Positions 29,148 through 45,410 of a DNA stretch of 54,666 nucleotides are shown here, in pieces. The position numbers and the translations under genes were made by a program. The stretch is from IMG/VR virus record IMGVR_UViG_3300017963_000316, positions 1 through 54,666 of that record. One strand, 5' to 3'. The notes beneath the pieces are model-generated. The model did no database searches and was not told the origin of the DNA. It worked only from the letters and a program-made list of their open reading frames with translations. Each line of letters starts with the position of its first letter. The stretch's first letter is position 1. The DNA comes from a virus. Its lineage: Duplodnaviria > Caudoviricetes.

Positions 29148-29601
29148 TTTCTTCGATTGGGAAGAATTGAAAATGCGTGGTAAGGTCATTGCAGAATCAG
29201 GATATTTTGACCCTCCACATCCAGAACACCTATCTTATTTTAGAGAAGGTAAGAAACTCGGTGACATTCTTGTTATTATCCTGAACACCGATGAGCAGTT
29301 ACTACTAAAACGTAAAGGTACTGCACTGGAAGGTATAATAAGGTATCCATTTGAGGATAGAGCAATCATTGTGAACGAGTTCAAACCTGTTGACATTGTT
29401 GTTCGCTCAATAGATAAGGATGCTAGTATAGCAAAGACACTGAGGTTAATTAAACCTCACGTATTCGCAAAAGGTGGAGATAGGACAATTGATACTCTAC
29501 CAAAAGCAGAGATAGATACAGCTAAAGAAGTAGGTTATGAGATAATTTGTAATGTGGGAAATCCCAAAGAACATTCTAGCTCATGGTACAAGTGGGAATA
29601 A
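29128..29601 (+). CDS. cytidylyltransferase-family nucleotidyltransferase (RfaE/TagD-like)
   Basis: SGYFDPPHPEH (HxGH variant), FAKGGDR, HSSSW. Confidence 0.8.
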   Translation: MIIMNPNFFDWEELKMRGKVIAESGYFDPPHPEHLSYFREGKKLGDILVIILNTDEQLLLKRKGTALEGIIRYPFEDRAIIVNEFKPVDIVVRSIDKDASIAKTLRLIKPHVFAKGGDRTIDTLPKAEIDTAKEVGYEIICNVGNPKEHSSSWYKWE

Positions 29602-29602
29602 G

Positions 29603-30970
29603 ATGGACAAGCTACTAAACAAGATTGCAAAGAAGTTCAACAAGCAAGGCTACGAACTTTATGAAGTTGGTGGTCATGTTCGTGATGCCATTCTCGAAAG
29701 AGAATCTCACGATATTGACCTGGCAACTAACGCACGTCCAGATAAGATAAAGGAACTGCTGGACGAATTTGGTGCTATTTACACTATGGGTGCGGAGTTT
29801 GGTACTATTGGTCTTAATGTAGATGGTCAAACTATCGAGGTAACCACCTTTAGAAAGGAAGTTTACCCTGTTGAATCTCGTAAGCCATCTGTTATCTTTG
29901 GTGACAACCTAGAAGAAGACCTATCAAGACGAGATTTTACCATCAATGCAATAGCACGAAACCCACTGACTGGTGAGATATTTGACCCGTTTAAGGGTAT
30001 AGAAGACATGAAGAAGAAGTTGATAAGAGTTGTAGGTGGAGACGAAAGATTTGACGAAGACCCACTAAGAATGCTTCGTGCAATCCGTTTTGCCTGTGAA
30101 CTTGGTTTCTCACTTGACATAAGAATAGAGCATCCAGAAAGACTGGAAATCATTTCTAAGGAAAGAATTCGTGAAGAACTAAACAAGATTCTTCTATCAA
30201 GACGTGCCTCATATGGTTTCAGAAAGTTGTGTCAAACTGGTCTAATATACTATGTTGCACCAGAGTTCATGGATTTGAAGAACATAGTACAAGGTAAGAA
30301 TCACATAAAGGATGCTTTCGAGCATTCACTACTGGTTCTACACAAGGGTACTAAGGTTGATGCTGGTGACAGAAACCTAATATTTCGTCTTGCCTGCATC
30401 TTCCATGACATCGGTAAGCCAGAAACTAAGATAGAAGATGATGACGGTGTTCACTTCTACTCACATCACAATGTGGGTGCAAGAAAGGCAAGAAAGATAC
30501 TACGCAGACTTCGTTATGATAACGAAACTGTTAATGCCGTTTGCCACCTAATCAAGTACCACATGACTCCAATTGTTCTACAAAGAGAAATTCAAAACGG
30601 CAGAATAAAGAAGAGAATCATCATGCGACTGGTAAGAAAGGTCGGTGAAGATAACATTTACCTACTGTTGGATTTGGTGAAGTGTGACATTCGTTCTTCA
30701 AAGAACCCACGTTACAAGTTCGTTACTATACTAATGAGACTGGTAAATGAGTGCATGAAGGAACAACCAGATACTCTAACTTCACCTATTGATGGTAAGG
30801 AAATCATGGCAGAGTTTGAACTTGAACCAGGTAAGTTTGTGGGTGAGATTAAGAGACATTTGACTAACCTTGTTATTGATGGTAAGCTAGATAAGGATGA
30901 CAGGGAAGGTGCATTTGCAGAAGCGAGGGATTACATATATGAGCGAAGAAAAGGAATTGGAGCAGTTTAA
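29603..30970 (+). CDS. cca: CCA tRNA nucleotidyltransferase with HD domain
   Basis: VGGHVRD, DIDLAT, RRDFTINA, EDPLRMLRA.RF, ERIREEL, FHDIGK. Confidence 0.92.
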   Translation: MDKLLNKIAKKFNKQGYELYEVGGHVRDAILERESHDIDLATNARPDKIKELLDEFGAIYTMGAEFGTIGLNVDGQTIEVTTFRKEVYPVESRKPSVIFGDNLEEDLSRRDFTINAIARNPLTGEIFDPFKGIEDMKKKLIRVVGGDERFDEDPLRMLRAIRFACELGFSLDIRIEHPERLEIISKERIREELNKILLSRRASYGFRKLCQTGLIYYVAPEFMDLKNIVQGKNHIKDAFEHSLLVLHKGTKVDAGDRNLIFRLACIFHDIGKPETKIEDDDGVHFYSHHNVGARKARKILRRLRYDNETVNAVCHLIKYHMTPIVLQREIQNGRIKKRIIMRLVRKVGEDNIYLLLDLVKCDIRSSKNPRYKFVTILMRLVNECMKEQPDTLTSPIDGKEIMAEFELEPGKFVGEIKRHLTNLVIDGKLDKDDREGAFAEARDYIYERRKGIGAV

Positions 30971-32656: not shown

Positions 32657-32692
32657 AAAAAAAGAAGCTCAGGGAATATTACTCCTGAGCTT
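32657..32692 (-). terminator. intrinsic terminator at the convergence of the two arms
   Basis: AAGCTCAGG/CCTGAGCTT hairpin next to an A7 tract (U-tract on the - strand). Confidence 0.75.
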
Positions 32693-32755: not shown

Positions 32756-32833
32756 TGGTTGCGGAGGTAGGACTCGAACCTACAACCTGCTGATTCAAAG
32801 TCAGCCGTCCAAACCAATTTAGACTACTCCGCA
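32756..32833 (-). tRNA. tRNA-Gln(UUG)
   Basis: Cloverleaf; anticodon arm GCTGA-CTTTGAA-TCAGC; CCA encoded. Confidence 0.9.
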
Positions 32834-32837
32834 ATAG

Positions 32838-33193
32838 TAAGCAGACCCGTAAGCCGAATTCTGTTTTATGTGAACATTTGTCTTGACTCAATGTTACCAT
32901 TGAATTCCTTGCCACCCACCCAAGACTATAGAGTGTAGCCCTCAGTCTTTGCTTGGTGTTGCACCAGATGGAGATTGCCCGTTTCACTCTCGTTAGAGTC
33001 AGGTGTTTGGGGAGCAGGTTGAAGATTCCCTTACTCTCCCTACCTAGACTACGCTTATCTTCCGAAGCCCTTTTCTAACAAGACTCGTCTCTGTTGCTCT
33101 AATCGTCAGATTACTCTGCCAGGGTGTTACCCTGCATCCTGCTCGTTGGTGTTCGGACTTTCCTCTCCGTAGAGCGTTCACTCAGTCTGCTTA
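32838..33193 (-). ncRNA. rnpB: RNase P RNA
   Basis: GAGGAAAGTCCG, GCAACAGAGA, GTGAAACG and ACAGAATTCGGCTTA conserved boxes; P1 TAAGCAGAC/GTCTGCTTA. Confidence 0.92.
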
Positions 33194-33337
33194 TGTTTTT
33201 TAGCATCTAACCTGCAAGCTCTCCTACAAACAGTTAAGCATATAGGAATACAAATACACAAGTCAATTGCTACATGTATTAGAATTTCAATTAATGAAAT
33301 AGTAATCCCGAAAATTATAAATTCAATCATTTTCTTT

Positions 33338-33425
33338 TGGCGGAGGGTGCAGGATTCGAACCTGCGGGGCTGTTATACCCTTCTGTTTTCAAGACAGCTA
33401 CAATAAACCGCTCTGCCAACCCTCC
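33338..33425 (-). tRNA. tRNA-Ser(UGA)
   Basis: Long variable arm; loop CTTGAAA; GCCA end. Confidence 0.92.
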
Positions 33426-33538
33426 ATTATTTAATTTTAAGAAGCTCTAAACTGGCTTCTTCAATTAATTTCGTGCGATATGGAGATTCTAGTTTAGTTA
33501 TATATGGGTCATCAATTTGTACCACTTTTAATAGTAGC

Positions 33539-33907
33539 TTACTCAGAATCTCTCGTATCTGTTTCAGCTTTTGTTCTTTCTTCCCTGCCATAGTCATCCT
33601 CTAGTCTGACAACATCTTCAACTTCTGGTGTGGAGACTTCAATTATCCCCATATCACTGTCAGTTGCTTCTATACGATGTTTGGTGTAAGGTGGGATATG
33701 TTGAACATCACCTTCATTGAAAGGAATAACAGTTTTGTTAAGTACAATAATACCTTGACCACGAATCACTAACAGTGTTTCTTCCTTAACCTTATGGTAT
33801 TGATAACTTAATCTACTACCCTTCTCGACAAAAATATACTTACCAACGTACTTATCTGTTTGAGCAAACCAAATCTCATAACCCCAAGGTTTCCTAACTT
33901 TCTGCAT
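33539..33907 (-). CDS. cupin (type II phosphomannose isomerase-like)
   Basis: KPWGYE, RLSYQYH..KEET, HRIEA, EVSTPE. Confidence 0.85.
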   Translation of the reverse strand: MQKVRKPWGYEIWFAQTDKYVGKYIFVEKGSRLSYQYHKVKEETLLVIRGQGIIVLNKTVIPFNEGDVQHIPPYTKHRIEATDSDMGIIEVSTPEVEDVVRLEDDYGREERTKAETDTRDSE

Positions 33908-34132
33908 CTAACCTATTTCCTCTCCTAGCCTAATACGAAGTGGAATTACACCATATATCAAAATTGCATATTCAGGTAGTTGGTTCTTAATGTCTACAAA
34001 TGATGCAATTACATAATAATCATCGTTATCAAAGCAATGAATATACTCTTTAGAATTCAACCAATCAGATAACTTCTGACGTTCTAAAGCAGTTAAGCAA
34101 GTTTTAGCAACTAAATATGTACTTATGTCCAT
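33908..34132 (-). CDS. hypothetical protein
   Basis: ATG directly after the tRNA-Thr 3' end; stop abuts the next gene. Confidence 0.55.
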   Translation of the reverse strand: MDISTYLVAKTCLTALERQKLSDWLNSKEYIHCFDNDDYYVIASFVDIKNQLPEYAILIYGVIPLRIRLGEEIG

Positions 34133-34133
34133 G

Positions 34134-34207
34134 AGCCGCCGAGAGGAATCGAACCCCCATCCTACCGCTTACAAGGCGATTGCTCAACCAGTACGAGCTA
34201 CGGCGGC
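34134..34207 (-). tRNA. tRNA-Thr(UGU)
   Basis: Loop CTTGTAA; full CCA not encoded. Confidence 0.9.
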
Positions 34208-34579
34208 ATATCTTTCACGTCTCCATGCTCTACCATTTCCTTTGTTCTTACTCTTATATGTCGGGGTTTGTGAGTCACAGTTAGAGCATATTAAACGTAA
34301 GTTTCCAAGTAACCAATTGTCAGCGTTACCGTCTATATGGTCAAGAATAAGCACTATGGGTTCATTTAGCCACTCAGATAACCCACAAATCTCACATCTA
34401 TGACCTCTGGTTTCTATCAAGTACCATTTTTCTCTGCCTGATATTAACCTGTTAGACCTTTCAATCTCTTGTCTACGTAGACTACGTTGGTAATCCATCT
34501 GACATCTAAGACTACAATACTTTAAATTATGGTGCTCCGCACCACAATGTATACATTTCTTTTTACGATACCTGCTCAT
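34184..34579 (-). mobile_element. free-standing HNH (homing) endonuclease gene
   Basis: CEICG...LDHIDGNADN...NLRLICSNCDSQT; between two tRNA-Thr genes. Confidence 0.85.
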
Positions 34580-34580
34580 G

Positions 34581-34651
34581 AGCCACTGGTAAGACTTGAA
34601 CTTACTTCCGTTGTTTACGAAACAACTGCACTACCTATATGCTACAGTGGC
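34581..34651 (-). tRNA. tRNA-Thr(CGU)
   Basis: GTTGT-TTCGTAA-ACAAC; full CCA not encoded. Confidence 0.88.
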
Positions 34652-34795
34652 TAATCAAAATATTCTTGCCTTCCACAAATCCTGTGCATGTGTTTAACTT
34701 GCTGTCTAACCCAACGTCTAATCTTCATGTATCTATGATGAGAAGCTTTATAATGTTTTCGCACTTCTTTGTTTTTTAGAGCTTCTTTTTTAAAC

Positions 34796-35053
34796 TCACG
34801 GAAGTCTGTCATCTTCAGTTATACAACCACTTTCCCAAGTTCCATCAGGATGAATAAGGATAAAAATATCTTCATCACCCAACGTAATTTGTATACCACC
34901 TTCAGATGTTGGAGCGATGAATAGACCTTCAGTGAAGAATTTTGCCATCATTGTTGCTTTCTTGGTAATTGGTAATCCACCATAGCTGTCCCAATCATGC
35001 TCTAGTTCTAGAAAACTATCTATCTTCTTTGCTAGTTCTTTTCTCCAAGGCAT
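34796..35053 (-). CDS. hypothetical protein
   Basis: LEHDWDSYGG...PTSEGGIQ motif. Confidence 0.7.
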   Translation of the reverse strand: MPWRKELAKKIDSFLELEHDWDSYGGLPITKKATMMAKFFTEGLFIAPTSEGGIQITLGDEDIFILIHPDGTWESGCITEDDRLP

Positions 35054-35142
35054 TTCTATAAACCATCCCTATGTTTTTGCCATGCTTTGGTATTCTACTC
35101 TTTCGAGATTCCAGTTTTCGTTCTCTATTAGTTTGTTCGTAT

Positions 35143-35367
35143 TCACCATCCATTTGTAAAACACCTAAAACGCCAATGACACTTCTCACAATCTTTAACG
35201 TCTATTTCTGGTGGTAATCTACCTACGTGCCGAACAATGTTGATACAACTTTTGGTAGGAGTACCACAAGTAGGACAATAATGCCTAGTCGCCGCACCGT
35301 GTCCTACAACTCTAGTCTCACTGCCATTTGCGTACACTTTTTGACACTCAAAGCAGTAATATTTCAT
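35143..35367 (-). CDS. Zn-ribbon protein with C-terminal Cys module
   Basis: DCEKCHWRFRCFTN; ATG overlaps the tRNA CCA. Confidence 0.7.
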   Translation of the reverse strand: MKYYCFECQKVYANGSETRVVGHGAATRHYCPTCGTPTKSCINIVRHVGRLPPEIDVKDCEKCHWRFRCFTNGW

Positions 35368-35442
35368 GGTCAGGGTGGCTGGATTCGAACCAGCGACCTC
35401 CTGAGTCCAGGTCAGGTAGTCTGTCCACTGACGTACACCCTG
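35367..35442 (-). tRNA. tRNA-Pro(UGG) with atypical loop CCUGGAC
   Basis: Cloverleaf with C1-G72 and A73, CCA; C33/A37/C38. Confidence 0.8.
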
Positions 35443-35549
35443 ATAGGGGAAGCAAATGGCTTGGTATCACTTCCCACTTATTCTTTATACGTTTGGTTGA
35501 AACTCGTAGTTTCAATACTCAACACCAGTTCCAAGCAACTAAGTGTATG

Positions 35550-35624
35550 TCGGAATGAAAGGATTTGAACCTTCGACCCCATGCTCCCAAAGCATGTGCT
35601 CTAGCCTGACTGAGCTACACTCCG
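35550..35624 (-). tRNA. tRNA-Pro(UGG)
   Basis: CATGC-TTTGGGA-GCATG; no CCA. Confidence 0.9.
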
Positions 35625-36220
35625 ATGTCAATTACAACAGGTTTATTTACATTTTGGTAGTATTCATTAAGGACAGAAGCATTAACAAATGTTGTCTTAC
35701 CAATTCTTTTCTGCCCCGCTCCTTCGTGAATATGTCCGAAAACATGCACTTTAGGTTCAATCATGCTTGACCGCTCAAGTAAAGACTTTGAACCAAGATG
35801 ACTGCCACTTATACTGTAATCAAGGATTCCTTTTGGTGGACTATGCGTGATAAGAACATCAACCTTATCTGGAATACATTTCCAAATATCTGCTAGTCTT
35901 TCTTCAGACCTCATAAATGCCCAACCACCAAACCTTGATGTGTAAGGAGATGCCCAAAATATAAGACCATCAATTATAACAGCTTCGCTTATTAACATCG
36001 TAGCATTTATTATGATGTTCCTGTCACTCTCAAGGTAGAAATCGTGATTACCTGGTGTGAATAAAATATGTCTAAATTTTAAAGTACCAAGCCACGCATC
36101 AAATCTTTCAACTTCTTCTCTAGTCCCGTTGGACGTGGCATCACCTGCATGGATTAAAATATCACCATCGGGAAGTTCAGGAGTACGATTATGCGTGTCT
36201 GCTATTAAAACAATCCTCAT
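35615..36220 (-). CDS. metallophosphoesterase (calcineurin-like)
   Basis: ADTH, HAGD, PGNHD, THSPP, FGHIHE. Confidence 0.9.
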   Translation of the reverse strand: MRIVLIADTHNRTPELPDGDILIHAGDATSNGTREEVERFDAWLGTLKFRHILFTPGNHDFYLESDRNIIINATMLISEAVIIDGLIFWASPYTSRFGGWAFMRSEERLADIWKCIPDKVDVLITHSPPKGILDYSISGSHLGSKSLLERSSMIEPKVHVFGHIHEGAGQKRIGKTTFVNASVLNEYYQNVNKPVVIDIGV

Positions 36221-36227
36221 ATTATTT

Positions 36228-36301
36228 TGGTGGAGGTTACGAGACTCGAACTCGTCTTTTCTCATTGCAAGTGAGAGGTTCTCCCACTGAACTAAACCCC
36301 C
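36228..36301 (-). tRNA. tRNA-Ala(UGC)
   Basis: G3:U70; loop CTTGCAA; CCA. Confidence 0.92.
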
Positions 36302-36334
36302 ATTCTATACGAATTAGCTATTGAGCTTCACCCG

Positions 36335-36634
36335 TTATCCAACCTCGTCTACATATTTTCTGTTGTGGGTAATTCTTGCTTGTGTCATACTTGGTATTCT
36401 TTTTTCATCACCAGCCCTGTGTGTCCAACACCAAAATCTATTCTGGCAATCTTTACACTGTTCTTTAACCTTGACCCTTCCATTCAGCAAAGCCCACCAA
36501 CAAGTGGTGAGTTTAGTTCCACATACAGGACAACTAAGATTAAAGTCTGGTAATAACAACACGTCACAAACAGTACAGTATAATCGTTTTGGTTGTATTA
36601 GCTTTTCCATTCCTATATGCCAACAAGTTGTCAT
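36335..36634 (-). CDS. Zn-ribbon protein with Cys module
   Basis: QCKDCQNRFWCWTH; ATG overlaps the tRNA-Tyr CCA. Confidence 0.65.
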   Translation of the reverse strand: MTTCWHIGMEKLIQPKRLYCTVCDVLLLPDFNLSCPVCGTKLTTCWWALLNGRVKVKEQCKDCQNRFWCWTHRAGDEKRIPSMTQARITHNRKYVDEVG

Positions 36635-36720
36635 GGTGGGTTAGATAGGATTTGAACCTACTTAGTCCGAAGACGCCAGTTTTACAGACTGGTGCGACTC
36701 CCCATCTTCGCCGCTAACCC
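36634..36720 (-). tRNA. tRNA-Tyr(GUA)
   Basis: Long variable arm; loop CTGTAAA; CCA. Confidence 0.92.
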
Positions 36721-36769
36721 ATAAATAGGTAACGTTCCTGTAGGCATTTCTACCCACAGGATACATTCC

Positions 36770-36845
36770 TGGTGCCGACTAGAGGAGTCGAACCTCTTAC
36801 ACCTGGTGCTTCACGCCAGTGCTCTACCACATGAGCTTAGTCGGC
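36770..36845 (-). tRNA. tRNA-Phe(GAA)
   Basis: Cloverleaf; loop GTGAAGC; CCA. Confidence 0.85.
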
Positions 36846-36849
36846 ATAA

Positions 36850-36999
36850 ATCTGAGCGTTGGGCAGACTGTCTACCTTCCACAGAGCCTAGATTACTAGC
36901 ATGGAGGCTAAACTCCTAATCCAATAACTCTGGTTAGATTTTCCCCGACCTGCCACATCCTGCGGGCTAGTTAGACAATACCTGCTTACTAACTCAGAT
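36850..36999 (-). ncRNA. candidate rod-shaped structured RNA (6S-like?)
   Basis: Nested pairings ATCTGAG/CTCAGAT, GCAGG/TCTGC, TGTCTA/TAGACA, bubble, TGGATTA/TAATCTA. Confidence 0.5.
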
Positions 37000-37007
37000 G
37001 TCCCGAT

Positions 37008-37382
37008 TTAGGAAAATTTCTTCAGGAGTTTCTCCAAACGTGCTACTTCACCATTGGTTGTTCCAGCATTAGCTTTTGAAACGTTGATAGCTTGCTCGTT
37101 CTTCCTCTTGGTAGCTTCCCTCTCAGCTTTCAAGCGTGCGATACCCTGCTTCGTTTCCTCATCATTGCGAGCATCCTCGGTCTTGATTTTAGCGATTTGT
37201 CTCTCAGATGCAATAACATCTTTGTTGAGAGCCGCTATAGCCTCTTGACCTTCGGGTACTACGGTAAGAGGTAAATCCACAATCGCACACACACCCTTGA
37301 TTGTCCGTACATCGGACTTTTTGAAGCCTACCTCAGCTTCATAGCGTTCGAGTTCCCTTAACCCAAATTTCTCAGCAGTCAT
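37008..37382 (-). CDS. coiled-coil hypothetical protein
   Basis: AAGGA RBS; first gene after a promoter. Confidence 0.75.
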   Translation of the reverse strand: MTAEKFGLRELERYEAEVGFKKSDVRTIKGVCAIVDLPLTVVPEGQEAIAALNKDVIASERQIAKIKTEDARNDEETKQGIARLKAEREATKRKNEQAINVSKANAGTTNGEVARLEKLLKKFS

Positions 37383-37424
37383 TTCCGTTCCTTTCCTTTA
37401 TTTAGAATTTTTCATTCTACCTAT

Positions 37425-37456
37425 ATTATACCATATGCCAAGTGAGATGTCAAGCC
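37425..37456 (-). promoter_or_regulatory. sigma70-type promoter with extended -10
   Basis: GGCTTGACA TCTCACTTGGCATA TGG TATAAT. Confidence 0.85.
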
Positions 37457-37470
37457 CTTTCTACGGCTTG

Positions 37471-37553
37471 TGTCGGTGGAGAGATTTGAACTCTCATGCC
37501 CTTTTGAGCACTGGATTTTAAGTCCAGCGTGTATGCCATTCCACCACACCGAC
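37471..37553 (-). tRNA. tRNA-Leu(UAA)
   Basis: Loop CTTAAAA; long variable arm; no CCA. Confidence 0.92.
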
Positions 37554-37879
37554 TAATCTAACCACCCTTTTAACCATCTTAGTTTTCGGTGATTCCAACA
37601 TATTTCTTCACACTGTGAATCTGCGTTTAAGTGCTGTCTAACCTCCTGCATCGGTAGATAACCCCAATGTCTTCTAGGATTACCGCACATATAACAAGAA
37701 CATGGAACTTTTGTTTTACGGTAGATTCCTAATGTTCTTTCTAGCTCATCTTTTGTCCACCAAGAACGATAACGCCTACCTGATTGATTCTTATTTCGTG
37801 GGGAAAACCCCTCATACCTTTTAAAGACCTTTTCGGCTTTACGCCGAGCAACAGCCAATCTAGTTCCAAGCATACACAT
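37553..37879 (-). CDS. basic hypothetical protein
   Basis: CSCYMCGNPRR motif. Confidence 0.7.
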   Translation of the reverse strand: MCMLGTRLAVARRKAEKVFKRYEGFSPRNKNQSGRRYRSWWTKDELERTLGIYRKTKVPCSCYMCGNPRRHWGYLPMQEVRQHLNADSQCEEICWNHRKLRWLKGWLD

Positions 37880-37882
37880 CTC

Positions 37883-38020
37883 CTAGTTATCATGTAATCG
37901 CATCCTTGCCTCTAGTTCTCTTGGAGACTCCACATCAATATCATAGACCCAATCTATGCCATATAGATAAAGCACTGAATGTTCTATGACCCAAGTAGAA
38001 TATTCTGTTTGCTCAATCAT
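37883..38020 (-). CDS. small hypothetical protein
   Basis: MIEQTEY...; ATG overlaps the tRNA-Trp CCA. Confidence 0.45.
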   Translation of the reverse strand: MIEQTEYSTWVIEHSVLYLYGIDWVYDIDVESPRELEARMRLHDN

Positions 38021-38097
38021 GGCAGGAGCAGTAGGATTCGAACCCACATTTCCTCGTTTTGGAGACGAGTGTTTTAATCCTGTTAAACTATACTCCC
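38020..38097 (-). tRNA. tRNA-Trp(CCA)
   Basis: CTCGT-CTCCAAA-ACGAG; G73; CCA. Confidence 0.92.
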
Positions 38098-38804
38098 AAT
38101 AAACAATCAACCAGTTCATCTGCTGTCATGTAATATTTTGCTTCTAGCGTATTTTTGTTAGTAGAGATACCAAATCCAGCCGCTGAAATCATTTCTTTGT
38201 CGTTTATCTTGTCACCTATTGCTACAACATCATTTCTGTCTATATCTAGGTACATAGCAATAGCTTTTACACCTACACCTTTGGATATGGACTTCTTTTG
38301 AATGTCAAACGCTTCGCCGTTCCACATAACTTTTAAGTCACCATCAGTGTCATACTTACGGACAATCTCATAAACTTCTGGAATTTCTCTATCAGCATGT
38401 GCTGTCAAGATGAACTGTTTAGGTTCAAAACCTTTAATGTCTAGTTTAGATATTCCCCTTCGTATGTCATATATTTTATCAAAATACGCATCATCATAAG
38501 TAATGTGCTGAATTACCCTGCCGTCCACAAGGGACAAGTTCCCATTTTCAGCCTGTAATATTACTCCACCACCTAGAACCTTTGAATACATTCCTTGAAG
38601 GTAAATAAGACTTCTTCCAGAGGATACACAAATTCGTATCTTTTTCTTTAATCTATTAACCTTCTCTGCAAAGGAATCAGTTATAAGATTAGTTTTTACT
38701 ACAACCTTATGATAGTCTTCTTCGGTTGTCTCTAGGATTTCTGTACCTACTGGAACGGACACACCATCCGAATCAAGAATCAACAATTTAATATTACTGA
38801 ACAA
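38088..38804 (-). CDS. HAD-superfamily subfamily IIB hydrolase
   Basis: LDSDG, SSGRS, ENG, SKG, AIGDKIND. Confidence 0.88.
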   Translation of the reverse strand: MFSNIKLLILDSDGVSVPVGTEILETTEEDYHKVVVKTNLITDSFAEKVNRLKKKIRICVSSGRSLIYLQGMYSKVLGGGVILQAENGNLSLVDGRVIQHITYDDAYFDKIYDIRRGISKLDIKGFEPKQFILTAHADREIPEVYEIVRKYDTDGDLKVMWNGEAFDIQKKSISKGVGVKAIAMYLDIDRNDVVAIGDKINDKEMISAAGFGISTNKNTLEAKYYMTADELVDCLLGV

Positions 38805-38826
38805 TCATAACTCCTTGTTTTTTAGT

Positions 38827-38914
38827 TGGTGTCCGAAGCAGGATTTGAACCTGCACCCCTGTTACGGGAATAGGGTTTGAGCCTATCGTGTCTACCGTGT
38901 TCCACCATTCGGAC
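38827..38914 (-). tRNA. tRNA-Leu(CAA)
   Basis: Loop CTCAAAC; long variable arm; CCA. Confidence 0.92.
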
Positions 38915-39086
38915 TTACATCTCAAAATTTTCGAAGTCTTTAACTCTGAAGCTGAAGAAATCACCTTTCTTTACTTCTTGGTCATCTTCTATTCTAGTCC
39001 ACCCTGAACTATGAAAATTAACCACCCAAAATAAATCCACAAACTCTGGTTTTAATATCTTTTGTTTTAGTTCTAGTGCTGTCAAA

Positions 39087-39458
39087 TTACTTCTCCATTA
39101 AACAATCGCCATCTGTGTTATAAAGGTCATTTACAAATTCACAATCATCAACTCCACATCGTTCACAAGTAATGTAGTGATGACATATAGGACATTCCTC
39201 ACCACGTGGTCGTGCTACTAATACCATATTACTTGGGTCTGCTCTGTAGCATACTGGACATAGAAAGTCATGGTTACCTATAATACGCTTCAGTCTGGCA
39301 TGTACCATCAATAGGTCTAGTTGTGGAAATCCTCTTAAAGTTAAAGTATCACCCACTTTCTTGTTCGTATAACAGATGTATCGGATTGGACAATCATCAC
39401 ATTGTTCATTACATCTGTATCGGTAGATGATGTCACCTTGGTCTACCACTATATCCAT
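39087..39458 (-). CDS. Cys-rich protein with Cys module
   Basis: CNEQCDDCPIRYICYTN; ATG 6 nt after the -10 box. Confidence 0.7.
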   Translation of the reverse strand: MDIVVDQGDIIYRYRCNEQCDDCPIRYICYTNKKVGDTLTLRGFPQLDLLMVHARLKRIIGNHDFLCPVCYRADPSNMVLVARPRGEECPICHHYITCERCGVDDCEFVNDLYNTDGDCLMEK

Positions 39459-39464
39459 ACTACT

Positions 39465-39496
39465 ATAATAGCACAAGCCTCATTAAAAGTCAAGCC
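39465..39496 (-). promoter_or_regulatory. sigma70-type promoter
   Basis: GGCTTGACT TTTAATGAGGCTTG TGC TATTAT. Confidence 0.75.
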
Positions 39497-39617
39497 TCGG
39501 ATAACCTTCGCCACATACAATATGTAGGTGCTAATATTGGCATTGCTGGTTTATCACAATACTTTTTTCCATCGAGTTCTTTCTTGAATGGACAGTCTTC
39601 TTTGTTATGGCAGGGTA

Positions 39618-39836
39618 TTAACATCCAAATCTCCCGCAGTCATAAACTACAATTGTTTCCCCATCCGATTCATAGAAGCAATTGGAACAGTGTGTTCCAC
39701 CGCAAGCGTTACAGTGCCAAGAATAATCCGCAAATTCAAAAGTTGCTATCTCATCTTGTTCGTAATGTATCTTACCTGATTTAGCACAGAGGATACGCTT
39801 ACCCTTTTGCACTTTATAACCATAGACGTTATTCAT
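39618..39836 (-). CDS. Cys-rich hypothetical protein
   Basis: ATG overlaps the tRNA-Gly CCA. Confidence 0.6.
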   Translation of the reverse strand: MNNVYGYKVQKGKRILCAKSGKIHYEQDEIATFEFADYSWHCNACGGTHCSNCFYESDGETIVVYDCGRFGC

Positions 39837-39911
39837 GGAGCGAGTGGCGGGAATCGAACCCGCTACCTTCTGGATGGCAACCAGACGTTCAACCTCGTGA
39901 ACTTCACCCGC
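39836..39911 (-). tRNA. tRNA-Gly(GCC)
   Basis: Loop TTGCCAT; U73; CCA. Confidence 0.92.
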
Positions 39912-40230
39912 ATTTTACTTTTCGTGGGGATGAAAATGTACCATAAGCGGGACTACCATTAACTACAGCATAACTTAGGACTATTAGTTCATCACCAATT
40001 TCCACAAGAAGTGATGCCGCACCATTGACACAAACCTCTTTCTCGTCACCTTTTATTGCATAGGTCACAAATCGCTTACCGTTGGTAACGTTAAGAACAT
40101 GAACCTGCTCATATTCCAAAATATCTGCTTCGTGCATCCATTTGGGGTCAAGTGTTATGCTACCATCACACCTAGAGTCTGCATCAGTAACTTGTAAACC
40201 GTATAGTTTACTTTTAAGCATTACTCGCAT
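39904..40230 (-). CDS. panD: aspartate 1-decarboxylase (pyruvoyl-dependent)
   Basis: MLKSK, GSITLD self-cleavage site, NGKRFVTYAI, VNGAA. Confidence 0.88.
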   Translation of the reverse strand: MRVMLKSKLYGLQVTDADSRCDGSITLDPKWMHEADILEYEQVHVLNVTNGKRFVTYAIKGDEKEVCVNGAASLLVEIGDELIVLSYAVVNGSPAYGTFSSPRKVKCG

Positions 40231-40421
40231 AAATCTCTCCTTGTTTCATATAGTTTTTTGATTGCAGAACTAACCTCAGCTTTAGTACCAAGTATAGTTC
40301 CAGTTGTGTAGCAATAAAATCTGTGTCTACAGTTATCACATTTGCTGTGGCAACCATCGCATATAAGGATTGTGGCGGTATTACCAAAAGCTGAATCGTG
40401 CATCACTATAGGTCTATCCAT
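40221..40421 (-). CDS. small protein with Cys module
   Basis: CHSKCDNCRHRFYCYTT. Confidence 0.65.
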   Translation of the reverse strand: MDRPIVMHDSAFGNTATILICDGCHSKCDNCRHRFYCYTTGTILGTKAEVSSAIKKLYETRRDLCE

Positions 40422-40422
40422 A

Positions 40423-40497
40423 TGGGGTGACTGACGGGATTCGAACCCGTGTTACCTGGGTCACAACCAAGCATCCTTCCATTGAATGACAGCCACC
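40423..40497 (-). tRNA. tRNA-His(GUG)
   Basis: G-1:C73; loop TTGTGAC. Confidence 0.92.
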
Positions 40498-40500
40498 ATA

Positions 40501-40779
40501 TTAAACTAAAGGTTTTACATTTTCAGTACCTAAAATCTTCATACCTATTAACTTATGTCTTTTACTTCCTTTAACATAAATCTTACTGCCTGTAACACCT
40601 GCTAAAAATCTTGAGGGGCTTTTATAAGTCTTTATTTTTGACCAATCAACCTCTACGATTTCTATTCGTGACGCTGTGAAACACTTAAATCGTATTGCAC
40701 ACACATCACAACCACTACCATCACAAACAAACATATCGTTACCAGACGGTTTATTTATTAGCTTAATGAACCTGTTCAC
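40501..40779 (-). CDS. hypothetical protein with Cys module
   Basis: CDGSGCDVCAIRFKCFTA. Confidence 0.7.
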   Translation of the reverse strand: MNRFIKLINKPSGNDMFVCDGSGCDVCAIRFKCFTASRIEIVEVDWSKIKTYKSPSRFLAGVTGSKIYVKGSKRHKLIGMKILGTENVKPLV

Positions 40780-40978
40780 GTCTTGATAACTCCTTAGCTA
40801 AATCAATGCCACTCCAAGAATGTACCACTATAGATGTCCAACATCTAAACCTGAGCCAGCAAGTATCACAATCCCTCGGTGTTTTGTCACAAATAATCTT
40901 GTCAGGTAGGATTCTAGGAGTAGAACGGTATATTTCTACGTCTCTTTTGTTCCTTTCTAACTTTTCTGAACTAATCAT
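40763..40978 (-). CDS. hypothetical protein with Cys module
   Basis: CDKTPRDCDTCWLRFRCWTS. Confidence 0.7.
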   Translation of the reverse strand: MISSEKLERNKRDVEIYRSTPRILPDKIICDKTPRDCDTCWLRFRCWTSIVVHSWSGIDLAKELSRREQVH

Positions 40979-40980
40979 TT

Positions 40981-41054
40981 TGGCTCTCCTGTCAGGGTTC
41001 GAACCTGAGTCCGTTGGTTCAGAGCCAACTGTGCTACCACTACACTACAGGAGA
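40981..41054 (-). tRNA. tRNA-Gln(CUG)
   Basis: U1-A72; loop CTCTGAA; GCCA. Confidence 0.92.
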
Positions 41055-41324
41055 TTACTTATATAAATGTTTATAATATTTCCAATTCCTATTCCATCCC
41101 AAGTCGTGGCAAGTCTTTGGTGATAAGAAACCTAGTTCTTCTGCCCTGTATCTAGCTGACTTGTAATGCCCGAAGATGTATCTGATACCTCTTTTATCAC
41201 CAAGTAGACCAGAATCAAAACTACTTTTCCACTGGTTATTAACACCAAATCTTTTAGTATTCAACAATAAGTGTACTATGAGCTTCCAGTTTTTACAGAT
41301 AAAGATAATCCCGTGTATGTTCAT
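41055..41324 (-). CDS. hypothetical protein
   Basis: ATGA coupling; stop abuts the tRNA. Confidence 0.55.
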   Translation of the reverse strand: MNIHGIIFICKNWKLIVHLLLNTKRFGVNNQWKSSFDSGLLGDKRGIRYIFGHYKSARYRAEELGFLSPKTCHDLGWNRNWKYYKHLYK

Positions 41325-41821
41325 AATAAACCAAGCAACTTGTCTAGCGAAAGCGGGTAGTAATCAAGCATCTCAGCACTTACGTTAATCGTTCTTCTTT
41401 CCTTGTTGACTAGAGGGTATAGTTCTGGATAATTGTTATGATGATGCCCATGAATCATCCAACCATCCCACTTGGGTTTATCATAGTCAGGAGAATGTAT
41501 TAATAAGAACCTTACTCCACCCAACTCTACTATGTGCCATCTGTGAACTGGTGTGATTCCTCTAATACTTTCTTTCCTGTCATGATTACCCTTGATAAGA
41601 ACTTTCTTACCATTTAGTTTTTGCCACCACCAACTACCATCCCTACTTCCTCTGCCATACGCAATGTCACCCAAGTAATAAACCGTATCTTCTACGGTCA
41701 CCGTCTCGTTCCAACGTTTAACAAGAGTCTCATTCATTTCCTCAACAGAACTGAACGGTCTATTGCAATACTTGATGATGTTTGTATGGTCTAGGTGTAA
41801 ATCACCAATTAAGTATATCAT
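41321..41821 (-). CDS. metallophosphoesterase (calcineurin-like)
   Basis: MIYLIGDLH, YYLGD, GNHD, IHGHHH; start overlaps the tRNA CCA. Confidence 0.9.
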   Translation of the reverse strand: MIYLIGDLHLDHTNIIKYCNRPFSSVEEMNETLVKRWNETVTVEDTVYYLGDIAYGRGSRDGSWWWQKLNGKKVLIKGNHDRKESIRGITPVHRWHIVELGGVRFLLIHSPDYDKPKWDGWMIHGHHHNNYPELYPLVNKERRTINVSAEMLDYYPLSLDKLLGLL

Positions 41822-41895
41822 GGTTGCGGGGGTGAGAATCGAACTCACGTAGACCTGCTTATGAGACAAGTCGGGTAACCAACAACCTCCCCACT
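41821..41895 (-). tRNA. tRNA-Met(CAU), atypical (1:72 mismatch, irregular D arm)
   Basis: Loop CTCATAA; T arm GTGAG-TTCGATT-CTCAC; ACCA. Confidence 0.7.
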
Positions 41896-41897
41896 GT

Positions 41898-42047
41898 TTA
41901 ATGATTCTTGAAGAAACAATCTTCTTCACACGGCGTACCATCAGGTAGTGTCCAAGGTGGAACTCTACTCCCACATCCTCTGCACTTGTCAGGTACGTTT
42001 CCAATATGGTCAAGGATAAAATCTAATATTTTATCTACTATTTTCAT
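41898..42047 (-). CDS. small hypothetical protein
   Basis: MKIVDKIL...; ATG overlaps the tRNA-Glu CCA. Confidence 0.5.
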   Translation of the reverse strand: MKIVDKILDFILDHIGNVPDKCRGCGSRVPPWTLPDGTPCEEDCFFKNH

Positions 42048-42120
42048 GGTAGCGATAGAGGGAATCGAACCCTCGTTGCTAGGTTGAAAGCCTAGTTGCC
42101 TGCCATTAGCAGATACCGCC
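42047..42120 (-). tRNA. tRNA-Glu(UUC)
   Basis: CTAGG-CTTTCAA-CCTAG; CCA. Confidence 0.9.
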
Positions 42121-42263
42121 AATATAGATTGCTCTGTAGTCTCCGCACCGCAAAATTACGTTGTCTTCCTTCCACCTATCATTCAATAATATTATAAGAA
42201 GGTCACCAATTATTATACGATTGTTATTTACCATTGACTTAGGAGCACTACGCTTTTTCATTT

Positions 42264-42339
42264 TGGCTCTGGTGGTTGGACTCGAACCAACATATTTACG
42301 GTTAACAGCCGTTCCTATTACCGATTATAGTACACCAGA
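42264..42339 (-). tRNA. tRNA-Asn(GUU)
   Basis: U1-A72; loop CTGTTAA; GCCA. Confidence 0.9.
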
Positions 42340-42633
42340 ATCGAAACCGAAATCATCTGGATAAGCAGAATAAATTGCGTCTGCCTCACCATTTACCACA
42401 TCCACAATAACTGTTCTTTCAAAAACTCTCGTACTAGCACATACAAACTTGAAGTCACAGTGACGGCATTTAGGTTTGAAACCAAAATTATCACTTTTAC
42501 CCATCCTGCAAAGCTTAGTACGGTGATTGAGTGAATGACAAGCGGATGGGTCTTTTACTTTCCCCTTAACAAATCTAAAGATAGTGATTGTTTTACATTC
42601 ACGACAAATACCCAAATAAACCCTTTTGTTCAT
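42325..42633 (-). CDS. hypothetical protein with Cys module
   Basis: KCRHCDFKFVCAST; start overlaps a CCA, stop lies inside tRNA-Asn. Confidence 0.65.
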   Translation of the reverse strand: MNKRVYLGICRECKTITIFRFVKGKVKDPSACHSLNHRTKLCRMGKSDNFGFKPKCRHCDFKFVCASTRVFERTVIVDVVNGEADAIYSAYPDDFGFDSGVL

Positions 42634-42708
42634 GGAGGCACTGGTCGGAATCGAACCGACTTAAAATCGCTTTGCAGGCGACCGCCTTATCCAATTAGCT
42701 ACAGTGCC
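42633..42708 (-). tRNA. tRNA-Cys(GCA)
   Basis: Loop CTGCAAA; U73; CCA. Confidence 0.92.
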
Positions 42709-42969
42709 TTATAATCTTGTTACCAGATTAAACGCTCTGATATAGAATTCCTCATCTGGTATTTCCCAATAATTTTTATACCTCAAATCAGCTAACATCT
42801 CGGACGGTAATTCTCGTAGTTTCTCATCTATATCTATACACCACAAATCAAGTCCTTCACTCGTAGTATAACAAGTAAATCTAAAAGGACACCCATCACA
42901 TCTTGTATGACAAGGGAACTTTACTACTAATTCTTGTTCAGCATTTTTAATAGTAACTATCTTTTTCAT
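42709..42969 (-). CDS. hypothetical protein with Cys module
   Basis: CHTRCDGCPFRFTCYTT. Confidence 0.7.
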   Translation of the reverse strand: MKKIVTIKNAEQELVVKFPCHTRCDGCPFRFTCYTTSEGLDLWCIDIDEKLRELPSEMLADLRYKNYWEIPDEEFYIRAFNLVTRL

Positions 42970-43130
42970 GCACTGCCAGTCCCACGAGGTCCATTACCAC
43001 CTTTAGATGCTAACCAAAGTAGGAAAGCAATAAACAACATAACCCAAACAAATGCCCAAAACATTGTCATAGCTATAAATTCTAACATGAAGTCTTTACC
43101 TCTCATAGTAAGACCTCACCGTTCCTCACT

Positions 43131-43206
43131 TGGCGGTCTATACGGGTTTCGATCCCGTCCCTCATCCTTGACAGGGATGTATGCTCACCATTAACACCTA
43201 TAGACC
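43131..43206 (-). tRNA. tRNA-Asp(GUC)
   Basis: Loop CTGTCAA; G73; T-loop variant ATCGAAA. Confidence 0.9.
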
Positions 43207-43593
43207 TCTACCTGTTCCTGTAACGTATAGAATATTTGGGAACTTTACCCATGAACGTTCTATACCAATTCTCTCGTCATCTTCCTCTACTATTGCTCCT
43301 AGCTTAAACCCATCACCGAAATTCTCTCTATAACTTCTGCTCCAATAACCAGTATCAGCTACTTGCTTGTAGAGTCCCAATCTTAAACATTTGGGTAGGT
43401 GGAACTCTGCTTTGAATCTCTCATAACTTCTATATTGGTCATGTACTTCTTCAGTTTCCACCTTGACAGGATTAACGTGAATCCTATCATCAGTAAAGCA
43501 CTCAAACCTATGGAGACAAGTATTACAATACTCAGAATCCCAAGTCCAAGTTCTTTTCATCGTTCTGTCATCTGTTGCTGTATATAAATACAT
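43198..43593 (-). CDS. hypothetical protein with Cys module
   Basis: YCNTCLHRFECFTD. Confidence 0.7.
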   Translation of the reverse strand: MYLYTATDDRTMKRTWTWDSEYCNTCLHRFECFTDDRIHVNPVKVETEEVHDQYRSYERFKAEFHLPKCLRLGLYKQVADTGYWSRSYRENFGDGFKLGAIVEEDDERIGIERSWVKFPNILYVTGTGRGL

Positions 43594-43603
43594 AATCTTT
43601 CAT

Positions 43604-43690
43604 TGGTGCGGGTGATAGGAGTCGAACCTACACGCATGTTACTGCACTACGTTCTAAGCGTAGGGTGTCTACCAGTTTCACCACACCCGC
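43604..43690 (-). tRNA. tRNA-Leu(UAG)
   Basis: Loop CTTAGAA; long variable arm; CCA. Confidence 0.92.
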
Positions 43691-43768
43691 ATGATGGGGA
43701 AGTACCAGTATTGCATGACGTTCATCAATTGCCTTTGTGTACCTTTTCATCGGCTGTACTCCACCCCG

Positions 43769-43848
43769 ACTCGCTGGCGGGACTTGAACCCGCATTTACA
43801 GATCCACTTACGGTTAACAGTTTAGGAAACTGCCCCGACTACAGCGAG
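43769..43848 (-). ncRNA. D-arm-less tRNA-like RNA (apparent CCU anticodon)
   Basis: CTCGCTG/CAGCGAG acceptor, GCGGG-TTCAAGT-CCCGC T arm, GCAGT-TTCCTAA-ACTGT hairpin, no D stem. Confidence 0.65.
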
Positions 43849-43870
43849 ATAAAAGTAAGATTGGCTTACC

Positions 43871-43946
43871 TGGCACCCCTGCCGAGATTTGAACTCGGAC
43901 TATTGGTTTAGAAGACCAATGTGTTCTCCAGTTACACTACAGGGGC
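43871..43946 (-). tRNA. tRNA-Arg(UCU)
   Basis: Loop CTTCTAA; GCCA. Confidence 0.92.
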
Positions 43947-44363
43947 AAATATTTTCCATTCGTTTTTATATTTTTCGTATTTACCACAATTATCATTAGC
44001 ACGTTTATCAAGTTCTCTATGTGGATACAATGATACGTATATTGTGCTAATAGCTTCTATAGGAATAAAATACCACACATCCTCTGGTATTATATAACAA
44101 CCAATAATATCAACATCATCTTTTGTGTATTTTACTTTTGTCTTACTCCCTTTACCAATTATTAGTCTGTAAGTTTTATTGTCACTATTCTTCAATTTTT
44201 GCTGGTATGACACACTTTTAATTTGCAATCTATTGAAAGTTCTATTACTTTCTATAATATAATCATATCCTACAGTATTAAAAGGAGTGGCTACAACAAG
44301 ACCACGAAGCATCGCTTCATATAAAAACTTAGCTTGTGCCGTTTCTCCTTGTTTTAATGACAT
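43932..44363 (-). mobile_element. free-standing PD-(D/E)XK (group I intron-associated type) homing endonuclease gene
   Basis: GETAQ..., P...GYDYIIE...RLQIKS, YTKDDVD, WYFIP; AT-rich; between two tRNA-Arg genes. Confidence 0.8.
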
Positions 44364-44374
44364 TTCATTCTCCT

Positions 44375-44452
44375 TGGACCCCCTGGCGAGACTCGAACTC
44401 GCAACAACCTTGGTTCGTAGCCAAGTGCTCTATTCCATTGAGCTACAGGGGG
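44375..44452 (-). tRNA. tRNA-Arg(ACG)
   Basis: CTTGG-CTACGAA-CCAAG; CCA. Confidence 0.9.
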
Positions 44453-44453
44453 A

Positions 44454-44549
44454 TGGTAGGAACGGAAGGACTCGAACCTTCAACCTTGGGGAAATCAGCC
44501 CCTAATACCGCTTATAAGACGGTTGCACTGCCAATTGTGCTACGTTCCC
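44454..44549 (-). tRNA. tRNA-Ile(UAU) with long variable arm
   Basis: ACCGT-CTTATAA-GCGGT; 25-nt variable region with GGGG/CCCC stem; A73; CCA. Confidence 0.8.
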
Positions 44550-44791
44550 ATCCTCCAATTATTGAAACATTCTCGTATCTTTCTAGGAGACCCCATTTTC
44601 CTAAGCTCATAGTAAAGACATGGGTCTGCAATTGTCACGTACCATTTAAGCGTATAACATTTAAATCTTAACTTACATTCGTTACACTTAACAACACCGT
44701 TACCATTACAAGAAAACGAAACAAAGTCATTATTCTTGTAGGAAAATGGATGTTCAGGAACATCATCGTAAATACGAATTTCTTTCTGCAT
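44540..44791 (-). CDS. hypothetical protein with Cys module
   Basis: CNGNGVVKCNECKLRFKCYT; start overlaps a CCA, stop is tRNA U8A9G10. Confidence 0.7.
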   Translation of the reverse strand: MQKEIRIYDDVPEHPFSYKNNDFVSFSCNGNGVVKCNECKLRFKCYTLKWYVTIADPCLYYELRKMGSPRKIRECFNNWRMGT

Positions 44792-44869
44792 GGTAGGGCT
44801 ATGGGGGTTCGAACCCCAGTTCACACTTCGAGAGAGTGTTGTCCTTATTGTCCACTAGACGATAGCCCC
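44791..44869 (-). tRNA. tRNA-Glu(CUC)
   Basis: ACACT-CTCTCGA-AGTGT; CCA. Confidence 0.88.
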
Positions 44870-44870
44870 A

Positions 44871-45190: not shown

Positions 45191-45193
45191 ACG

Positions 45194-45408: not shown

Positions 45409-45410
45409 TT

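Follow-up and report, generated by a model that had tools for sequence, protein, structure and literature searches.

A predicted bacterial type-A RNase P RNA gene with a conserved fold in the tRNA arrays of uncultured tailed phages

Can a bacteriophage carry, among its tRNA genes, a working copy of the ribozyme that removes the 5' leaders of pre-tRNAs? Few ribozymes are universal. The RNA of ribonuclease P (RNase P) is among them, and it counts as a housekeeping marker of cells. In one paper it serves as a completeness check for bacterial genomes (PMC8172020). The question is raised by a locus in IMG/VR virus record IMGVR_UViG_3300017963_000316 (Duplodnaviria; Caudoviricetes), the whole of which, 54,666 nucleotides, was analyzed and is called the window below; the record is linear and 37% complete according to CheckV. 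The original prediction, made from the letters alone, had placed an RNase P RNA gene at positions 32838-33193, inside a phage-like tRNA array. Our analysis suggests that the gene probably encodes a functional RNase P RNA in a translation and tRNA-biogenesis module (33 tRNAs, a CCA-adding enzyme and a peptide deformylase) of uncultured tailed phages.

We scanned the whole window with cmscan (Rfam 15, gathering thresholds). The single RNase P match was to the bacterial type-A model, RF00010 (RNaseP_bact_a), at 33193..32834, which bore out the predicted gene and added its strand, minus, which had not been given. This match scored 188.2 bits against a gathering score of 100 (E-value 2.5e-59), covered model positions 1-367 of 367 and was not truncated. 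The archaeal model RF00373 (80.8 bits, cut-off 84) and the type-B model RF00011 (52.7 bits, cut-off 97) fell below their cut-offs, so the RNA is type A; comparison with the bacterial A/B and archaeal models had been proposed as a check, and only type A exceeded its gathering score. A chance match to RF00010 is excluded by the E-value and by the covariation among relatives described below. The RNA of a cellular Flavobacteriaceae locus (L085), which has the same architecture, scores 211.3 bits, comparable to the value for the window. Judged by its sequence, the RNA of the window is a bona fide bacterial type-A RNase P RNA of full length.

32834..33193, minus strand: RNase P RNA gene (rnpB-like), bacterial type A, matching RF00010; 360 nucleotides including a 4-nucleotide 3' tail; core helices covary in four phage copies

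Position 32838 is the last pair of helix P1, and the 4-nucleotide tail (CUAU) was added by the model. Both strands of P4, GAGGAAAGUCCG and ACAGAAUUCGGCUUAC, are present in the RF00010 alignment with letters identical to the consensus, in agreement with the main universally conserved boxes noticed at the outset. They form the long-range helix with its bulged U, and the seven P4 pairs are 100% paired in four phage copies. The other helices of the catalytic domain, P1-P3, P5, P7-P9 and P15-P18, are all aligned and paired; the joining region J5/15 reads GCAA and the 3' side of loop L15 reads GGGU, which is kept in all four copies. P9 and P18 carry GUAA loops of the GNRA type, and P18, closed by GGUAAC in the alignment, is the GTAA-capped hairpin that had been pointed out. 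P3 consists of 3 bp closed by a UACG loop. The specificity domain, P10-P12 with ACAGAGA in J11/12 and GUGAAA in J12/13, is present in the window and in L067, a related metagenome contig of 4,980 bp found with a clade-specific pattern, which carries tRNA-Thr, Thr, Ser, a 360-nucleotide RNase P RNA (193.3 bits) and tRNA-Gln.

The GUGAAA motif runs directly into CGGGCAAUCUCC. Here 43 model positions, which we read as P13/P14, are deleted with 0 nucleotides in their place, so the earlier remark that the P12-like region continues without P13/P14 was correct. P13/P14 belong to the family consensus, and their absence is not disqualifying, since cellular members above the threshold likewise do without them. 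P12, in turn, has about 74 extra nucleotides compared with the model in the cmscan alignment.

32988..33083, minus strand: enlarged P12, about 96 nucleotides, made of a 9-bp base helix and a branched extension of about 78 nucleotides; the P13/P14 deletion lies just 3' of it, after GUGAAA

The base helix and the extension pair in both the window and L067, with two compensatory pairs in the extension that are partly circular as evidence, because its structure was predicted from these two sequences themselves. P12 is enlarged still more in another relative (G003, see below), whereas L085 has a short hairpin at the place of the P12 of about 96 nucleotides. The window's RNA shares with the type-A RNAs of RF00010 the helices P1-P5, P7-P12 and P15-P18, with both strands of P4, as well as the GGU of L15 and the GNRA loops that close P9 and P18. 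It differs from cellular type-A RNAs in being phage-encoded, with no rnpA on its replicon, in the 3-bp P3 with its UACG loop, in the head-to-tail fusion of its gene with a tRNA gene, and in a tree path of at least 1.28 to any cellular RNA sampled.

The fold was compared among phage copies, with the core helices taken from the Rfam consensus line and not from the phage sequences. The RNAs of the window and L067 are 94% identical; 42 columns differ, 26 of them paired columns. Across 104 pairs, 99.5% of cells are paired and nine pairs have changed on both sides, four of them in P16, compared with 0-2 such pairs in a control in which the 3' partners were slid by 1-3 columns. A second comparison used four copies, those of the window, L067 and two related phage genomes (G002 and G003), and left out P12 and its extension, which are not alignable across subclades. 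Among 74 core pairs, 97.6% of the 296 cells are paired, and 20 pairs have changed on both sides (P1, 4; P3, 1; P4, 2; P8, 1; P9, 1; P11, 1; P16, 5; P18, 5). The slid controls gave 0-2 pairs, and none of 500 shuffles reached the observed values, so the RNA is under selection for its fold. Seven cells are unpaired. Four belong to P17 of G002 and G003, whose alignment is doubtful there because of an insertion; one belongs to P1 of G003, and two sit at a terminal A.G in P11. P4 is the helix at the catalytic centre, and its two compensatory pairs, both in G002, are difficult to account for if the RNA is not a working ribozyme.

Does the gene belong to a phage? The window encodes proteins that include a clamp loader, a ParB-like protein, a Mom-like protein, a thymidylate kinase and the CCA-adding enzyme, and its genes run on the plus strand up to about 32.6 kb and on the minus strand beyond. 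No structural gene was found within the 54,666 nucleotides, and a complete relative was used instead. A scan of IMG/VR for the P4 box had yielded a locus (L047) with the tRNA order of the window, and its parent record, G001, is a genome of 138,618 bp with direct terminal repeats and an estimated completeness of 100%. The window aligns with G001 in 34 collinear high-scoring segment pairs of 66-94% identity, from 101.8 kb to the end of G001 and continuing at its start, so that collinearity spans about 40 kb on both sides of the RNase P gene. G001 encodes a tape measure protein, the terminase large subunit, a portal, a baseplate hub/tail protein, DNA polymerase, DnaB helicase and ribonucleotide reductase. 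Through this collinearity the RNase P gene is linked to hallmark genes of phages, on a replicon whose ends are those of a phage, and lies on a tailed phage of about 135-140 kb. The terminase of G001 led to two further genomes whose terminases are about 70% identical to it: G002 (133,760 bp, direct terminal repeats, 100% complete), with an RNase P RNA of 375 nucleotides and 176 bits, and G003 (134,397 bp, 90% complete), with one of 422 nucleotides and 175.6 bits. When the G001 terminase was searched by tblastn against 50,697 phage records, it gave a single match of 23% identity, suggesting that the lineage has no cultured relatives. Likewise, a megablast search with positions 25000-33200 gave no match among cultured relatives, and blastn with the locus returned matches to tRNA-Ser only.

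These results bear on a cellular origin, which had been named among the findings that would overturn the prediction. Under such an origin the locus would be a cellular fragment, a mis-assembly or a mis-binned piece of chromosome, and the search of other viral records described below offers two hints of this kind: 38 of the 53 IMG/VR matches to a first search pattern lie outside tRNA arrays and may be host flanks, and in MaAM05, a GenBank 'phage' record, the genes around an RNase P-like match resemble those of a cell. Five independent records, however, contain the same locus; two of the five have direct terminal repeats and an estimated completeness of 100%, G001 has structural genes, and the window is collinear with this complete phage genome on both sides of the gene. 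In addition, one assembled contig of 1868 nucleotides, which may be source data, bridges the gene and its flanks (31947-33814) with 0 differences from the window. We consider a non-viral origin extremely improbable.

Where, then, did the phage RNA come from? Two cellular Flavobacteriaceae RNAs, those of L085 (309 nucleotides) and L132 (180.1 bits), have the same 43-position deletion as the window and share the AACACCA and ACAGAAUUCGGCUUAC boxes with it, so the loss of P13/P14 is not phage-specific; all eight other phage copies aligned with these two also do without P13/P14. A tree from a quick search contained 68 rows, 13 phage and 55 cellular, after 25 of 80 cellular loci had been dropped in which the pattern did not find both boxes. 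The window and L067 pair with a support of 99 and, together with six Flavobacteriaceae RNAs and eight from other phages, form a group that is not resolved; the path to the closest cellular RNA measures 1.28 changes per column, and L085 and L132 are the nearest cellular rows. Phylogeny had been proposed as a guide to the host, and the rough tree does group the window with Flavobacteriaceae, but the group is unresolved; with its long branches and a biased cellular sample, it hints, weakly, that the donor or host was one of the marine Bacteroidota. A blastn search with the RNase P RNA against the 80 cellular loci matched the universal boxes only and gave no close donor; the P4-P5 box was found in many phyla among the matches listed. 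Homologues of the CCA-adding enzyme (505 records, all below 60% identity, mixed hosts) were uninformative on the host, as were the terminase, megablast and blastn searches given above.

It could be argued that a host rnpB came along when tRNA genes were captured, brings the phage no benefit and is becoming a pseudogene by drift. The tRNA regions of phages are hot spots of recombination, the genes beside the RNA vary from relative to relative (tRNA-Ser and tRNA-Gln in the window, tRNA-Leu and tRNA-His in G003, and no tRNA downstream in G001), and the copy in G001 is disrupted. Drift, however, would break pairs, whereas 97.6% of the core cells are intact and 20 pairs are compensatory. The RNA is also present in all five family members examined (the window, L067, G001, G002 and G003), across a terminase divergence of about 30%, and the lack of a close donor among the 80 cellular loci, with a nearest path of 1.28, indicates that any capture was old. 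A neutral passenger is therefore, in our judgment, quite unlikely.

The reading as a functional phage ribozyme draws further on the surroundings of the gene, the elements of which are as follows.

32759..32833, minus strand: tRNA-Gln(UUG), 65.8 bits with the Rfam tRNA model; it starts at the base after the ribozyme's 4-nucleotide tail and encodes 3'-CCA; anticodon read from the sequence
33338..53980, minus strand: tRNA array, on the same strand as the ribozyme
32657..32692, minus strand: terminator-like hairpin with a 9-bp stem and a 10-nucleotide loop, followed by seven U; the fold of 32630-32762 has a z-score of -2.86
33178..33330, minus strand: small open reading frame of 50 amino acids between tRNA-Ser and the ribozyme, with a hydrophobic N-terminal half and a Cys-rich C-terminal half
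29552..30970, plus strand: CCA-adding enzyme (tRNA nucleotidyltransferase), 472 amino acids; phrog_2244 (1.9e-70); Pfam PolyA_pol (123 bits), PolyA_pol_RNAbd and HD

The ribozyme is the last but one gene of the minus-strand tRNA array. The statement that it ends 4 nucleotides before tRNA-Gln holds exactly, as the CUAU tail is followed by the tRNA at 32833..32759, and the same abutting layout is found in L067. ARAGORN missed this tRNA-Gln(UUG). ARAGORN and Rfam each called 31 tRNAs, each with two absent from the other, and their union gives 33 tRNA genes, tRNA-Gln(UUG) included, for all 20 amino acids. Among the calls made by one program are tRNA-Met at 41821-41895 and tRNA-Ser(gct) at 46246-46333 (ARAGORN alone) and a 105-nucleotide tRNA-like gene at 45413-45517 (Rfam alone, 43 bits); the tRNA-Ile(tat) called at 44454-44549 is unusually long at 96 nucleotides. 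In Escherichia coli RNase P, the substrate's 3'-CCA is paired by the L15 GGU, while an adenosine of J5/15 contacts the base at position -1, preferably U. These elements of the phage RNA would fit the phage tRNAs, because 24 of the 31 Rfam tRNAs encode 3'-CCA, and U stands at position -1 in 19 of the 31, C in none.

The terminator-like hairpin lies about 65 nucleotides past tRNA-Gln, where the two directions of transcription converge; a consensus terminator scan did not list it, its loop being longer than the scan permits. On the other side, the last 16 nucleotides of the small open reading frame overlap the 5' end of the ribozyme. The frame has a 51-amino-acid homologue in G001, located upstream of tRNA-Ser there, and is frameshifted in L067 by a 10-nucleotide deletion. 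Because the upstream block conserved in L067 and G001 is this frame, its conservation is not evidence of a promoter. A candidate promoter within it, TTGACT-18-TATGCT at 33266->33237, was dropped, as the number of promoter-like sites, five, did not exceed the 5.4 expected in shuffled sequences.

The CCA-adding enzyme, a cytidylyltransferase-like protein and a peptide deformylase are encoded within 5 kb of the ribozyme on the opposite strand. With its PolyA_pol head, RNA-binding and HD domains, the CCA-adding enzyme is, as predicted from its sequence, a real one. A GidA/FAD-dependent protein, the peptide deformylase and the cytidylyltransferase-like protein are encoded just upstream of it, at 26116-28395 and 29128-29601 on the plus strand; together with the CCA gene and the tRNA array, these genes appear to form a translation-themed block.

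The tight sandwiching of the RNA between tRNAs, seen in many phages, could also be expected of a structural or processing element, that is, a folded spacer that directs cleavage of the polycistronic tRNA precursor, or a full-length mimic of an attachment site through which the phage would integrate into the host rnpB. Such a spacer would not need conservation of P4 and L15, and what is conserved here is a whole gene with its catalytic core. Attachment-site fragments, moreover, are usually partial 3' pieces. We regard this explanation as very improbable.

[quoted passage not shown]

L047:1073-1576 (G001 about 122030-122533), minus strand: HNH endonuclease open reading frame of 167 amino acids in the G001 RNase P RNA gene, at the P12 position, with a GAGG ribosome-binding site

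This frame matches phrog_10822 (3e-36) and Pfam HNH (26.7 bits, cut-off 21.4). We know of no other homing-endonuclease gene inside an RNase P RNA gene. A group I or II intron was considered and is unsupported, as no intron family matched L047:850-1900 at E<=1. The unusual junction after P11 and the P12-like stem are shared by G002, which does not have the open reading frame, suggesting that the G001 gene is a G002-type RNA with an inserted homing-endonuclease gene. For the same reason, the duplicated UAAACUCC in G001 was ruled out as a target-site duplication of the HNH gene. The G001/G002 subclade does not have the ACAGARA motif of J11/12; in G003, ACAGAGA is present and the positions of GUGAAA were left unaligned by the model. 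The enlarged P3 of G001 folds no better than shuffled sequences (z-score -0.03). The catalytic domain of G001 shows compensatory changes and no broken pair among the aligned pairs, and the specificity domain thus appears to be under looser constraint than the catalytic core in this phage family.

The protein subunit was searched for as well. PF00825 (RnpA) gave no match at E<=10 in the window (six frames), G001, G002 or G003, in accordance with the earlier statement that no rnpA gene is visible in the window; a control search was positive in 10 of 14 known genomes. A holoenzyme encoded wholly by the phage, with rnpA on the same replicon, was not found in any of these four.

Several points weigh against a functional ribozyme. 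The covariation comes from only four sequences, which are related to each other. The 5' end of the ribozyme has no supported promoter, with five sites against 5.4 in shuffles. The G001 gene is interrupted by the HNH frame and scores only as sub-threshold pieces, and canonical recognition of the substrate elbow would not be indispensable to every family member, since G001 and G002 do not have the J11/12 motif. Finally, the reduction of P3 to 3 bp and a UACG loop may bear on protein binding.

Some of these points would be expected if the RNA were a non-catalytic look-alike that titrates host RnpA or RNase P-interacting factors, redirects or shuts down host tRNA maturation, or serves as a regulatory decoy. 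With no phage rnpA, the host protein would be engaged in any case, and a decoy could lose the J11/12 motif, as G001 and G002 did, or tolerate an HNH gene in its specificity domain, as G001 does. There is also a viral precedent, the only viral case that we found in the literature: the camelpox RNase P-like RNA, which is virus-encoded and expressed but reportedly inactive in pre-tRNA processing (PMC3001073). That RNA, however, has partial structural similarity only, whereas the phage RNA is a full, high-scoring member of the family whose catalytic core covaries. A complete core would be superfluous in a decoy, yet P4 (with two compensatory pairs), P1, P8, P9, P16 and P18 covary, and the L15 GGU and J5/15 GCAA are intact. 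In addition, the 33 tRNAs of the phage need RNase P themselves, so sequestering its protein would harm the phage. A decoy is thus unlikely, in our view.

How would the phage ribozyme be made and used? We propose joint minus-strand transcription of the ribozyme and the tRNA array, with the hairpin and U-tract ending the transcript. RNase P, first that of the host and later the phage's own, would free the 3' end of the ribozyme by cleaving tRNA-Gln at its 5' end. Because no phage rnpA was found, the partner of the phage RNA would be the host RnpA. The RNA paired with host RnpA would remove the 5' leaders of the phage pre-tRNAs, so that RNase P capacity is kept up during infection independently of the host rnpB. 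The retained GGU would suit the CCA-bearing substrates (24 of 31), and the CCA-adding enzyme would serve the other seven and repair 3' ends. The original prediction had the phage supply its own ribozyme for 5' tRNA maturation as a complement to its CCA enzyme, and the links of that proposal that can be examined in sequence, namely a phage replicon, a fold under selection, a real CCA enzyme and no rnpA, all appear to hold.

Is the RNA peculiar to this family? RNase P RNA had been called uncommon in viruses, which stands as a statement of frequency, but it recurs in at least 16 further IMG/VR loci. A first search pattern matched at least 53 stretches in 2.9 million IMG/VR contigs, 15 of the 53 in or beside tRNA arrays, and 13 of these 15 exceeded the RF00010 gathering score. 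A second pattern gave at least 73 new loci, of which ten had an upstream P4 box; eight of the ten had two or more tRNAs nearby, and three of those eight were above the gathering score (L246, 280 bits; L200, 263.7; L272, 260.6). Both patterns missed G002 and G003, so the counts are lower bounds. The further loci, at least 16, in which a match to RF00010 exceeds the gathering score and lies within a tRNA array, on the strand of the tRNAs, are L006, L008, L011, L015, L016, L020, L023, L028, L038, L041, L046, L054, L055, L200, L246 and L272. Their parent contigs measure 7-463 kb and their RNAs 269-415 nucleotides; the scores of L016 and L028 are identical, and the copy in L015 is cut off where the locus ends. 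In L046 and L054 a transfer-messenger RNA (tmRNA) gene lies beside the RNase P RNA. Eight of the 16 were inspected in alignment; all eight are without P13/P14, four are without most of P12, and L020 is without P18.

In 11 of 13 other viral copies, a tRNA lies at most 7 nucleotides away on at least one side, always on the same strand, and in G003 there are tRNAs 3 nucleotides off on either side of the RNA. Because of this spacing, maturation by tRNA punctuation would be general among these genes. The specificity domain, for its part, would evolve freely because it is freed from being the cell's only copy. Phage-borne RNase P ribozymes in tRNA arrays could thus form a recurrent class, matured by tRNA punctuation and working with host RnpA or protein-free, which makes phage tRNA maturation free of the host rnpB and whose specificity domain evolves unusually freely; we put this forward tentatively, as somewhat short of an even chance. 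If it is true, the class might counter host shut-off or defences that target the tRNA supply.

Three further RNAs matched the whole RF00010 model below the threshold: L219:3884-4149 (64.8 bits), L229:425-705 (52.0) and L241:1410-1666 (49.7), with E-values from 1e-17 to 2e-12. They are 257-281 nucleotides long, and each abuts a tRNA in a dense phage tRNA array. Such lengths are near or below that of the smallest natural bacterial RNase P RNA known, which makes the three candidates for ultra-reduced RNase P RNAs. When two viral copies close to the consensus were searched by blastn, the matches were uncultured 'Bacteriophage sp.' contigs, two contigs labelled Acinetobacter phage MD-2021a, Microcystis phage MaAM05, and a Salmonella genome that is filed with the phages. 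MaAM05 was rejected as a clean phage case, as its match sits among fabI, engB, mtgA and glyS. In that record (MW495066.1, 111323-119473, L068) the unannotated RNase P RNA-like stretch lies at 115323-115473, and the region looks cellular.

The literature searched, supplements not included, contained no description of a phage-encoded RNase P RNA, which is a provisional result. None is described in the available parts of a paper on an rnpB annotation tool (PMC7191817) and of a 2024 RNase P review (PMC11143913). A survey of huge phages lists CCA-adding enzyme, peptide deformylase and tmRNA in phages, and its main text, as available, mentions RNase P zero times (PMC7162821). Provisionally, the maturation of tRNAs by a catalytic RNA is, as far as we found, not among the phage functions listed before. 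The genomic logic of the phage RNase P RNA is that of the translation genes of large phages, in which the phage duplicates parts of the host translation apparatus.

The structural losses have parallels. Bacteria of the Candidate Phyla Radiation have natural type-A RNAs without P13, P14, sometimes P16/P17, P18 or P12, which often need lowered thresholds, and the loss of P13/P14 is called 'not unusual' (PMC8172020). The phage copies show the same kinds of loss; those bacterial RNAs are sole essential cellular genes with rnpA in the genome, whereas the phage gene is an extra copy on a virus. GOLLD, a large structured RNA of phage-derived tRNA clusters, lies in an array of tRNA genes that was acquired by horizontal transfer and also holds a gene for an HNH endonuclease (PMC6582537). 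It has no known function or cellular housekeeping homologue, whereas the phage RNA is a recognizable member of a ribozyme family.

A phage family that keeps its own copy under selection would extend the list of translation functions duplicated by viruses to a catalytic RNA. The phage copies would also be natural experiments in the minimising and remodelling of a ribozyme, with no P13/P14, a 3-bp P3, expansions of P12, a homing-endonuclease gene inside, and possible forms below 280 nucleotides, and they raise the question by what means a foreign RNA subunit recruits the host protein subunit. For the curation of viral bins, an RNase P RNA on a contig would be no proof of cellular origin.

Two minor observations were made on the same sequences. 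On a 103-kb contig, a viral array with 38 tRNA genes includes a match to the tRNA-Sec model (L221:3792-3874, 49.1 bits, cut-off 47). In the window, a 316-amino-acid protein encoded at 51215-52165 on the minus strand matches Pfam DruA (Druantia defence protein A) with 97.1 bits against a cut-off of 27, here on a phage.

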